This document shows positions 21,115 through 21,330 of a stretch of 64,000 nucleotides of DNA, one piece after another; positions within the stretch are counted from its first letter, which is position 1; each line of letters begins with the position of its first letter. Below the pieces are notes generated by a model, which had not been told where the DNA came from, did not search any database, and saw nothing but the letters and a program-made list of their open reading frames with translations. The translations under genes and the position numbers were made by a program. This DNA is from a bacterium (GTDB lineage: Bacteria > Patescibacteriota > Minisyncoccia > Phycocordibacterales > UBA2100), in the NCBI GenBank assembly GCA_009924895.1, contig RFQR01000004.1:16328-80327 (forward strand), in the 5' to 3' direction.

Positions 21115-21330
21115 ATGCAAATCTTTGTGAAAACTCTAACTGGAAAGACTATTACGCTGGATGTGGAATCCTCTGATACGATTGAGGGCCTGAAGGCTAA
21201 GATTCAAGATAAGGAGGGGATTCCTCCCGATCAGCAGCGCCTCATTTTTGCAGGAAAACAGCTGGAAGACGGAAGGACTTTAGCAGACTATAATATTCAG
21301 AAAGAGTCTACTCTTCACCTAGTGCTGTAA
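21115..21330 (+). CDS. Ubiquitin (71 aa; C-terminal RLRGG tail absent)
   Basis: [71 protein letters not shown] is near-identical to eukaryotic ubiquitin residues 1-71. A stop codon follows LVL directly. Confidence 0.9.

Follow-up and report, generated by a model that had tools for sequence, protein, structure and literature searches.

A ubiquitin gene without its conjugation tail, under strong purifying selection in a giant-virus segment

Introduction

Why should an open reading frame that reads as ubiquitin stop at L71, directly before the conjugation tail R72-G76? The stop could be an error or hide a continuation, the gene could be a remnant on its way to deletion, or a ubiquitin that cannot be attached could be a functional product of the genome that carries it. 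The locus that raises this question lies in a 64 kb stretch of metagenomic DNA; the whole of this stretch is called the window below, and coordinates given without a locus name refer to it.

Virus-encoded ubiquitin is in itself already well known, baculovirus v-ubi and entomopoxvirus ubiquitin being examples; what appears to be new here is that the conjugation tail has been removed while the remainder is conserved. A total of 1,334 ubiquitin genes have been counted in giant-virus metagenome genomes (PMC11499249), in a paper whose main text contains neither the word 'glycine' nor the word 'truncated'. No description of a GG-less giant-virus ubiquitin was found in the literature searched, a body of work outside which most subscription journals fall.

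Results

Origin of the locus

The proteins of the window are on record from a 97.7 kb metagenome contig labelled 'bacterium' (NBV77006.1; NBV77004-NBV77007, locus tags EBR66_025xx). Despite this label, the window is, judged by its gene content, a giant-virus (NCLDV) segment. Its giant-virus genes include a mimivirus-type poly(A) polymerase (PF19244), DUF5871, DUF5759 and a C48/C57-like protease; further genes encode an NAD-dependent DNA ligase, RNase III, an ERCC4 nuclease, an SNF2-NADAR helicase, a patatin-like phospholipase and several large glycosyltransferases. The AAAATTG promoter-like motif described below and the presence of orthologous loci on IMG/VR viral contigs fit an NCLDV origin. 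Placement of the virus rests on the mimivirus-type markers. Because the 120 closest poly(A) polymerase homologues listed are metagenome proteins throughout, the clade is taken to be uncultured.

The 64 kb of the window yielded no E1, E2, RING/HECT ligase or dedicated deubiquitinase, and the one ubiquitin-system-like candidate is a Ulp1/C48-C57-like protease with a weak match. The window is part of the genome, the rest of which may encode a second, conjugatable ubiquitin or a viral E2/E3. Elsewhere in the window, 9637..13842 (+) encodes a 1401-aa protein with SNF2/helicase motifs and a NADAR domain (PF08719, E=1e-27), and 41725..63883 (-) holds a run of very large ORFs with lectin-like or glycan-related domains (F5/8 type C, Xlink, Tectonin). 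One protein of this run, 1583 aa long, carries four glycosyltransferase-type domains (DUF2827, GT10, GT25, GT47); the run as a whole suggests that glycan synthesis is encoded by the virus.

Coding sequence and fold

The tail-less ubiquitin core, Ub1-71, is encoded at 21115..21330 (+, TAA stop included) by an ORF of 71 aa that runs from ATG to TAA. An earlier note, made from the DNA alone, had called the ORF a nearly residue-for-residue match to ubiquitin through L71, and the comparison bears this out: 66/71 residues (93%) are identical to residues 1-71 of eukaryotic ubiquitin, the differences being E16D, P19S, N25G, V26L and S57A. The Pfam ubiquitin profile PF00240 matches with E=6e-32 over positions 1-69 of 72, and ubiquitin chains in the PDB are matched with E about 4e-39 (phmmer). 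The L8/I44/H68/V70 patch, R42 and all seven lysines (K6/11/27/29/33/48/63) are present, in agreement with the earlier observation that the I44 patch and K48/K63 are kept. An AlphaFold2 model (mean pLDDT 86.5) contains the beta-grasp elements E2-6, E12-16, H23-34, E42-45, H56-59 and E66-70, and the protein is predicted to keep an intact beta-grasp through beta5 with the usual ubiquitin topology. Constructs of ubiquitin 1-71 and 1-72 are contained in the PDB.

The TAA abuts the L71 codon, and R72-G76 are missing. The gene is a stand-alone ORF with no poly-ubiquitin, ribosomal fusion or extra-residue precursor, and the next gene, FEN1, begins 37 nt downstream in another frame; a stop before RLRGG with no in-frame fusion partner is thus as first described. 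By sequence, fold, lysines and I44 patch the product is ubiquitin proper, and it shares all of these features with eukaryotic ubiquitin. It differs from eukaryotic ubiquitin, which has R72-G76 and is made as a poly-ubiquitin or ribosomal-protein fusion precursor, in that both the conjugation tail and the precursor form are absent.

Genomic context

The gene had been placed between a zinc-finger-like ORF and FEN1, and next to a pair of tRNA genes. The FEN1 part of this description stands: the downstream neighbour (21368..22267, +) encodes a FEN1/XPG-like nuclease (PF00867 XPG_I, E=2.7e-8), has orthologues in the related loci L092-L185 and serves below as the synteny anchor. The conserved upstream neighbour (19999..20829, +) encodes a 276-aa HExxH-motif protein that has no Pfam match and is syntenic in L092, L093, L185 and loci without ubiquitin. 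Between this gene and the ubiquitin gene lies a spacer of 285 nt (20830..21114, +), mostly a strain-specific insertion, which is found only in the window's own strains (L001-L004) and has no second copy elsewhere in the window. The ubiquitin gene of L185/L186, L092 and L093 begins 26-40 nt past the HExxH stop.

The spacer holds a very basic ORF of 73 aa (20860..21081, +) with its own ATAG-type upstream motif (20833..20859). The zinc-finger part of the description finds no support here: the ORF has no significant Pfam match, the best, zf-CHY, scoring 16 bits against a cutoff of 31. The protein collection has no entry with exactly this sequence, and the returned assemblies lack a gene call at this place. 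The spacer with its ORF may represent an orphan gene of recent origin or, alternatively, inserted non-coding DNA.

The tRNA pair proved to be a single tRNA-Asn (GTT) at 23711..23785 (-) by both ARAGORN and Rfam. Relatives have tRNA clusters where the window has one tRNA, with 3 (Asn-Gln-Leu) or 5 members (L092 6219..6492, L093 8184..8648). In L093, a further tRNA-like call of 95 nt, whose anticodon has four bases, lies just 3' of the ubiquitin gene (5132..5226).

Two promoter-like motifs flank the ubiquitin gene. At its 3' end, the stop codon is fused to the AAAATTG promoter-like motif of FEN1, giving TAAAATTGC (21328..21336, +). The motif TAAAATTG, AAAATT[G/A], is found 38-53 nt 5' of the FEN1 ATG in 66/81 related loci, and because of this position we regard it as a FEN1 promoter element; since TAAAATTGC includes the TAA, the ubiquitin stop is itself part of the FEN1 promoter motif. 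AAAATTG occurs upstream of just 3/38 window genes. We take AAAATT[G/A] to resemble the mimivirus early promoter, AAAATTGA. At the 5' end, the start-proximal motif TAAAATAGA (ATAG) lies right before the ubiquitin ATG (21104..21114, +). ATAG is present at most 12 nt upstream of the ATG in 15/38 window genes, compared with 1.7 expected, and may serve as a promoter or initiator element close to the start codon that is specific to this lineage.

Authenticity of the stop codon

The window's 71-aa ORF, its stop and the next 37 nt recur identically in assemblies from at least 6 other samples, and the ORF is identical to the window's in L001-L005. L185/L186, the nearest distinct relative, has a FEN1 79.6% and a HExxH protein 88.8% identical to those of the window and carries the window's allele, CTA GTG CTG TAA AAT TGC, in a ubiquitin gene whose codon differences from the window number 16 synonymous and 1 non-synonymous. 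An assembly artefact, which the earlier note had singled out for checking, is ruled out by these independent assemblies and by the diverged relatives with the same stop. A variant genetic code was also rejected: the long ORFs of the window end in TAA (20), TAG (12) and TGA (5), and because all three terminate long ORFs nothing points to a reassigned stop codon.

The tail might still be restored by splicing, frameshifting, readthrough or correction of the sequence. In three relatives the ubiquitin gene is indeed interrupted by a group I intron, after codon 36, and a GTAAA string that overlaps the window's ubiquitin stop resembles a splice donor. Against such a hidden continuation, none of the six frames of the 64 kb window contains RLRGG, and the window's sole LRGG lies at 27775, 6.4 kb from the ubiquitin gene and in an unrelated context. 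Reading 3' of the stop in three frames gives no ubiquitin-like sequence, readthrough would give NCLSIPPS..., and the 37 nt from the stop to the FEN1 ATG are the FEN1 promoter. An Rfam search of 17000-26000 found no intron near the gene, the tRNA being the only match; an intron at the 3' end was rejected, the relatives' group I introns sitting after codon 36 instead. With the same stop recurring in independent assemblies and in diverged relatives, the reading of the gene as an artefact or as one with a hidden tail is effectively refuted, and we give it next to no credence; the spliced or frameshifted continuation once envisaged was not found.

The relatives' introns are insertions of ~820 nt in L100 (3862..4680), L119 (about 4001..4830) and L182 (about 4004..4833). 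They match Rfam RF00028 at 79-95 bits and carry an ORF of ~150-170 aa whose product combines a C2H2-like finger with a LAGLIDADG-like domain (PF14528, E=1e-4 in L182). Once the L100 insertion is taken out, the gene reads exactly as a ubiquitin of 71 aa. The presence of a homing intron in such a viral gene implies that co-infecting viruses have recombined at the ubiquitin locus.

Purifying selection

When the window is compared with the syntenic loci L092 (71 aa) and L093 (74 aa), dN is 0.006-0.019 for ubiquitin vs. 0.14-0.44 for the four flanking genes. The dN/dS of ubiquitin is 0.010 where dS can be estimated, synonymous sites in these comparisons being at or near saturation. Pairs of loci that share one truncated allele and diverged after the truncation allow a direct test of selection on the truncated protein. 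Among 71-aa forms, the window and L185 differ at the 16 synonymous codons and 1 non-synonymous codon given above, and L175 and L100 show 16 synonymous and 0 non-synonymous changes; among 74-aa forms, the counts are 24 synonymous and 0 non-synonymous for L107 and L108, and 9 synonymous and 4 non-synonymous for L110 and L111.

Conservation extends over the whole protein. There are 13 variable positions in 17 GG-less sequences vs. 17 in 15 GG sequences, with no relaxation. K6, K11, K27, K29, K33, K48, K63, L8, I44, H68, V70 and R42 are invariant in the 17 GG-less orthologues, whose variation sits at positions 3, 5, 17-19, 24-26, 28, 39, 53, 57 and 61 and is mostly conservative. The marks of a pseudogene are absent: dN/dS is about 0.01, the start, the upstream motif and the frame are intact, and none of about 30 GG-less ubiquitin sequences has a frameshift or an internal stop. 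Because purifying selection is this strong, we take the window ubiquitin to be a functional product and no error; it is very probably a real, functional, non-conjugatable ubiquitin.

Invariance of R42 has a bearing on whether the protein might be attached by another route. Legionella SidE enzymes form a phosphoribosyl linkage via Arg42 for which the C-terminal glycines are not required, and by attachment of this C-terminus-independent kind Ub1-71 would still be a covalent modifier. However, R42 is invariant in all ubiquitins anyway, and a mono-ADP-ribosyltransferase/phosphodiesterase effector was not found among the window ORFs. We consider this route highly improbable.

Variation of the C-terminus

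A census of C-terminal states was taken over the 80 viral loci in IMG/VR with the greatest similarity to the window ubiquitin. Ubiquitin-RLRGG is fused to another domain in 40/80 loci and stands alone with RLRGG, in some with a few extra residues, in 27/80. The others end at L71 (6/80), R74 (4/80), L73 (1/80) or G75 (1/80), or have the aberrant tail RFHSL (1/80). GG is therefore absent in 13/80 of these closest loci, a figure that is no population frequency because the sample is biased toward the query. Two more variants that stop at L71, P0009 and P0014, lie in unrelated contexts, have different stop codons and show saturated synonymous divergence.

The fusions are diverse. In ~20 viral contigs, ubiquitin-RLRGG is joined to a short basic domain (e.g. 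KPKRKPNAYMNFVKK...) that is HMG-box-like in appearance (L033, L037-L039, L041, L043, L045, L046, L050, L051, L055-L058, L060, L068, L072-L074, L080). Other IMG/VR fusions have long unrelated C-terminal parts of up to >1,000 aa.

The neighbour genes of the window are shared by 0/80 of the census loci, and FEN1 was for this reason taken as the synteny anchor. This anchor yielded about 90 loci whose FEN1 is 27-71% identical, most of them recovered from freshwater lake metagenomes. Many of them have a ubiquitin gene directly 5' of FEN1 and after the same HExxH gene, and a neighbour-joining tree of FEN1 was used to place the C-terminal states.

In the outgroup of this tree, ubiquitin ends in RLRGG + 1-4 residues (L130, L132/L134, L137-L140, L152, L163-L165, L171, L179) or is a fusion (L168). 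The GG-bearing genes of L130, L132, L134, L137-L140, L152, L163-L165, L171 and L179 lie directly upstream of FEN1, which makes them positional orthologues of the window ubiquitin. Like the latter, these giant-virus ubiquitins are viral and sit between the HExxH gene and FEN1; unlike it, the outgroup orthologues retain RLRGG, followed by 1-4 residues or a fused domain. The outgroup proteins of L137-L140, L152, L163 and L179 read DVEPSD[ST]I[ED]NVKQK where the crown clade has EG[VIL]KAK. The outgroup string resembles stramenopile ubiquitins, and may hint at the original donor or host. A further outgroup locus, L135, has no true ubiquitin; it has a divergent ubiquitin-like ORF of 72 aa (3119..3328; 56% identical, ending LAIK) 1.9 kb 5' of FEN1.

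The crown clade contains ubiquitins of 75 aa (L101), 74 aa (L095, L107, L108, L110, L111, L113, L118, L119, L129), 72 aa (L127, with the C-terminus LVLC) and 71 aa (the window, L185, L175, L100, L112, L116, L123). L143 and L157 also have 74-aa forms and are assigned to the crown by FEN1 identity alone, their FEN1 being cut short. A GG-bearing pair, L103/L104, is nested within the clade. Lengths among GG-less relatives are 75, 74, 73, 72 and 71 aa, and no form is shorter than 71 aa. In many crown lineages there is no ubiquitin gene, and the HExxH stop is followed after 42-80 nt by the TAAAATTG motif and FEN1. Because many sister lineages cleanly lack the whole cassette, we regard it as accessory, often lost and dispensable over evolutionary time.

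The stop contexts indicate how the tail may have been lost. The GG-bearing L132 reads GGA GGC AAC TAA AAT TGC, the 74-aa L107 reads AGG TAA AAT TGC and the window reads CTG TAA AAT TGC; these alleles look like in-frame deletions that retained the TAAAATTGC motif. Other lesions are different. L127 has R72C followed by TAG, and the 75-aa L101 and 74-aa L129 have a common post-stop sequence and are one glycine codon apart. The 71-aa L112, which clusters with the GG-bearing L103/L104 at 100% bootstrap in the FEN1 tree, retains TTC TA past its new stop, which represents the former F77 codon plus the first letters of the former stop. Because the lesions differ among lineages, we favour several independent losses of the tail; alternatively, losses were fewer and the tail was regained by recombination. 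The N25G signature common to the crown clade is also present in L103/L104, which argues that this pair is no foreign replacement.

Read from these alleles, the locus appears to have undergone an erosion series of 77 -> 75 -> 74 -> 72 -> 71 aa within one freshwater giant-virus clade, with the window ubiquitin as its end state. The ancestral protein at the locus would have been a normal viral ubiquitin with RLRGG and one to four extra residues. In the window lineage, the tail codons would then have been deleted in frame, bringing L71 against the TAA within TAAAATTGC of the next gene.

This stepwise series (77, 75, 74, 72, 71), together with the many crown lineages in which the HExxH gene is followed directly by the FEN1 promoter, is also what would be expected of a gene on its way out. 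Conjugation would have become unneeded, the tail would have eroded and the remnant would be nearing deletion, its conservation reflecting selection against harmful mutant ubiquitins. Yet truncated alleles persist across dS of 0.4-0.8 with 0-1 amino-acid changes, every lineage has kept the start codon, the upstream motif and the frame, with about 30 GG-less sequences free of frameshifts and internal stops, and erosion always halts exactly at the edge of the folded domain. Decay is in our estimation an improbable account of the locus.

Discussion

Without G75-G76 and the G76 carboxylate, established chemistry implies that Ub1-71 could neither be adenylated by E1 nor act as a donor. The best explanation of the locus, in our analysis, would be that an intact giant-virus gene encodes a conjugation-dead ubiquitin core and that this core acts as an acceptor-only molecule or decoy in the manner of UbΔGG, and we give this explanation roughly half of our confidence. 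Host E2/E3 enzymes would still build chains on K48, K63 and other lysines of Ub1-71, which would become the proximal unit of free chains lacking the C-terminus for USP5/Ubp14-type enzymes. Such capped chains and the Ub1-71 monomer would compete for proteasome receptors and other ubiquitin-binding domains, and this competition would blunt host ubiquitin-dependent degradation or signalling in infection.

The mechanism has precedent in an engineered protein. According to a review (PMC7659471, citing Amerik et al. 1997, Ecker et al. 1987 and Hodgins et al. 1992), UbΔGG undergoes ubiquitination and gives unanchored chains resistant to Ubp14. [quoted passage not shown] Counting against the cap model, unanchored chains have little toxicity in Drosophila (PMC7659471). 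The 74-aa forms, moreover, hold RLR unchanged across many synonymous changes, which hints that the tail stump matters in these lineages; the chain-cap model leaves the retention of RLR unexplained. Taken together, capping and competition by Ub1-71 may be considered evenly poised between right and wrong.

Conservation of every lysine and surface fits a role with multiple partners, but it does not discriminate between chain capping and simple binding. For simple binding, Ub1-71 would be a purely non-covalent ubiquitin-fold ligand, a monomer that engages a single partner or a small set of partners, of host or viral origin, such as a ubiquitin-binding domain, a DUB or a virion or factory protein, and is never ubiquitinated, its lysines being conserved as binding surface. 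Monomeric ubiquitin binds most ubiquitin-binding domains weakly, and free ubiquitin is already abundant in the host; given both, a monomer decoy would add little unless expressed very highly. The evidence from conservation and fold is the same for this ligand as for the acceptor-only decoy, and GG-less relatives of ubiquitin that act non-covalently are known, Hub1/UBL5 being one (PMC8431670). A ligand with a single partner should, however, relax on its unused surfaces, and dN/dS is about 0.01 with few variable positions. We regard a purely non-covalent ligand as rather unlikely.

Comparison with known non-conjugatable ubiquitins underlines what is particular to the acceptor-only decoy proposed here. 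UBB+1 arises by a transcript error, a C-terminal extension replacing G76. It is extended, whereas the window ubiquitin is genome-encoded and shortened. Both are natural non-conjugatable ubiquitins, and UBB+1 is associated with proteasome impairment (PMC2633047). UbΔGG, or des-Gly-Gly ubiquitin, a laboratory dominant-negative (Amerik et al. 1997, as described in PMC7659471), likewise has no GG and keeps the acceptor lysines; it is engineered and retains residues 72-74, whereas the window ubiquitin is natural, three residues shorter and under selection in a virus. Hub1/UBL5 (PMC8431670) also has a ubiquitin fold without the di-glycine and works without conjugation. It differs in being a distant relative of ubiquitin with partners of its own; the window product is ubiquitin itself (93%) and lies outside the Hub1 family.

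More broadly, one freshwater giant-virus clade may have repeatedly and independently turned the ubiquitin it captured into a conjugation-dead effector by which host chain turnover is poisoned or re-routed, acting on USP5-type recycling, proteasome receptors and ubiquitin-dependent defence, with the core 1-71 as the minimal functional unit. We put this forward tentatively, as a reading that falls somewhat short of even chances.

Because GG is absent from 13/80 of the closest IMG/VR loci, counts of viral 'ubiquitin genes' should record the C-terminus. The C-terminal glycine is the defining feature of ubiquitin, and a form that cannot be attached has mostly been met as a tool of the laboratory, UbΔGG, or as a by-product of disease, UBB+1; here it is maintained by a virus under very strong selection and appears to have been reached repeatedly. 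The one locus supplies natural variants of 71, 72, 74, 75 and 77 aa for testing conjugation-independent functions of ubiquitin. If the proposal is true, giant viruses would tamper with the turnover of host ubiquitin chains by means of ubiquitin itself, which would be a counter-host strategy not previously described for viruses, as well as a natural experiment on what ubiquitin does independently of conjugation.
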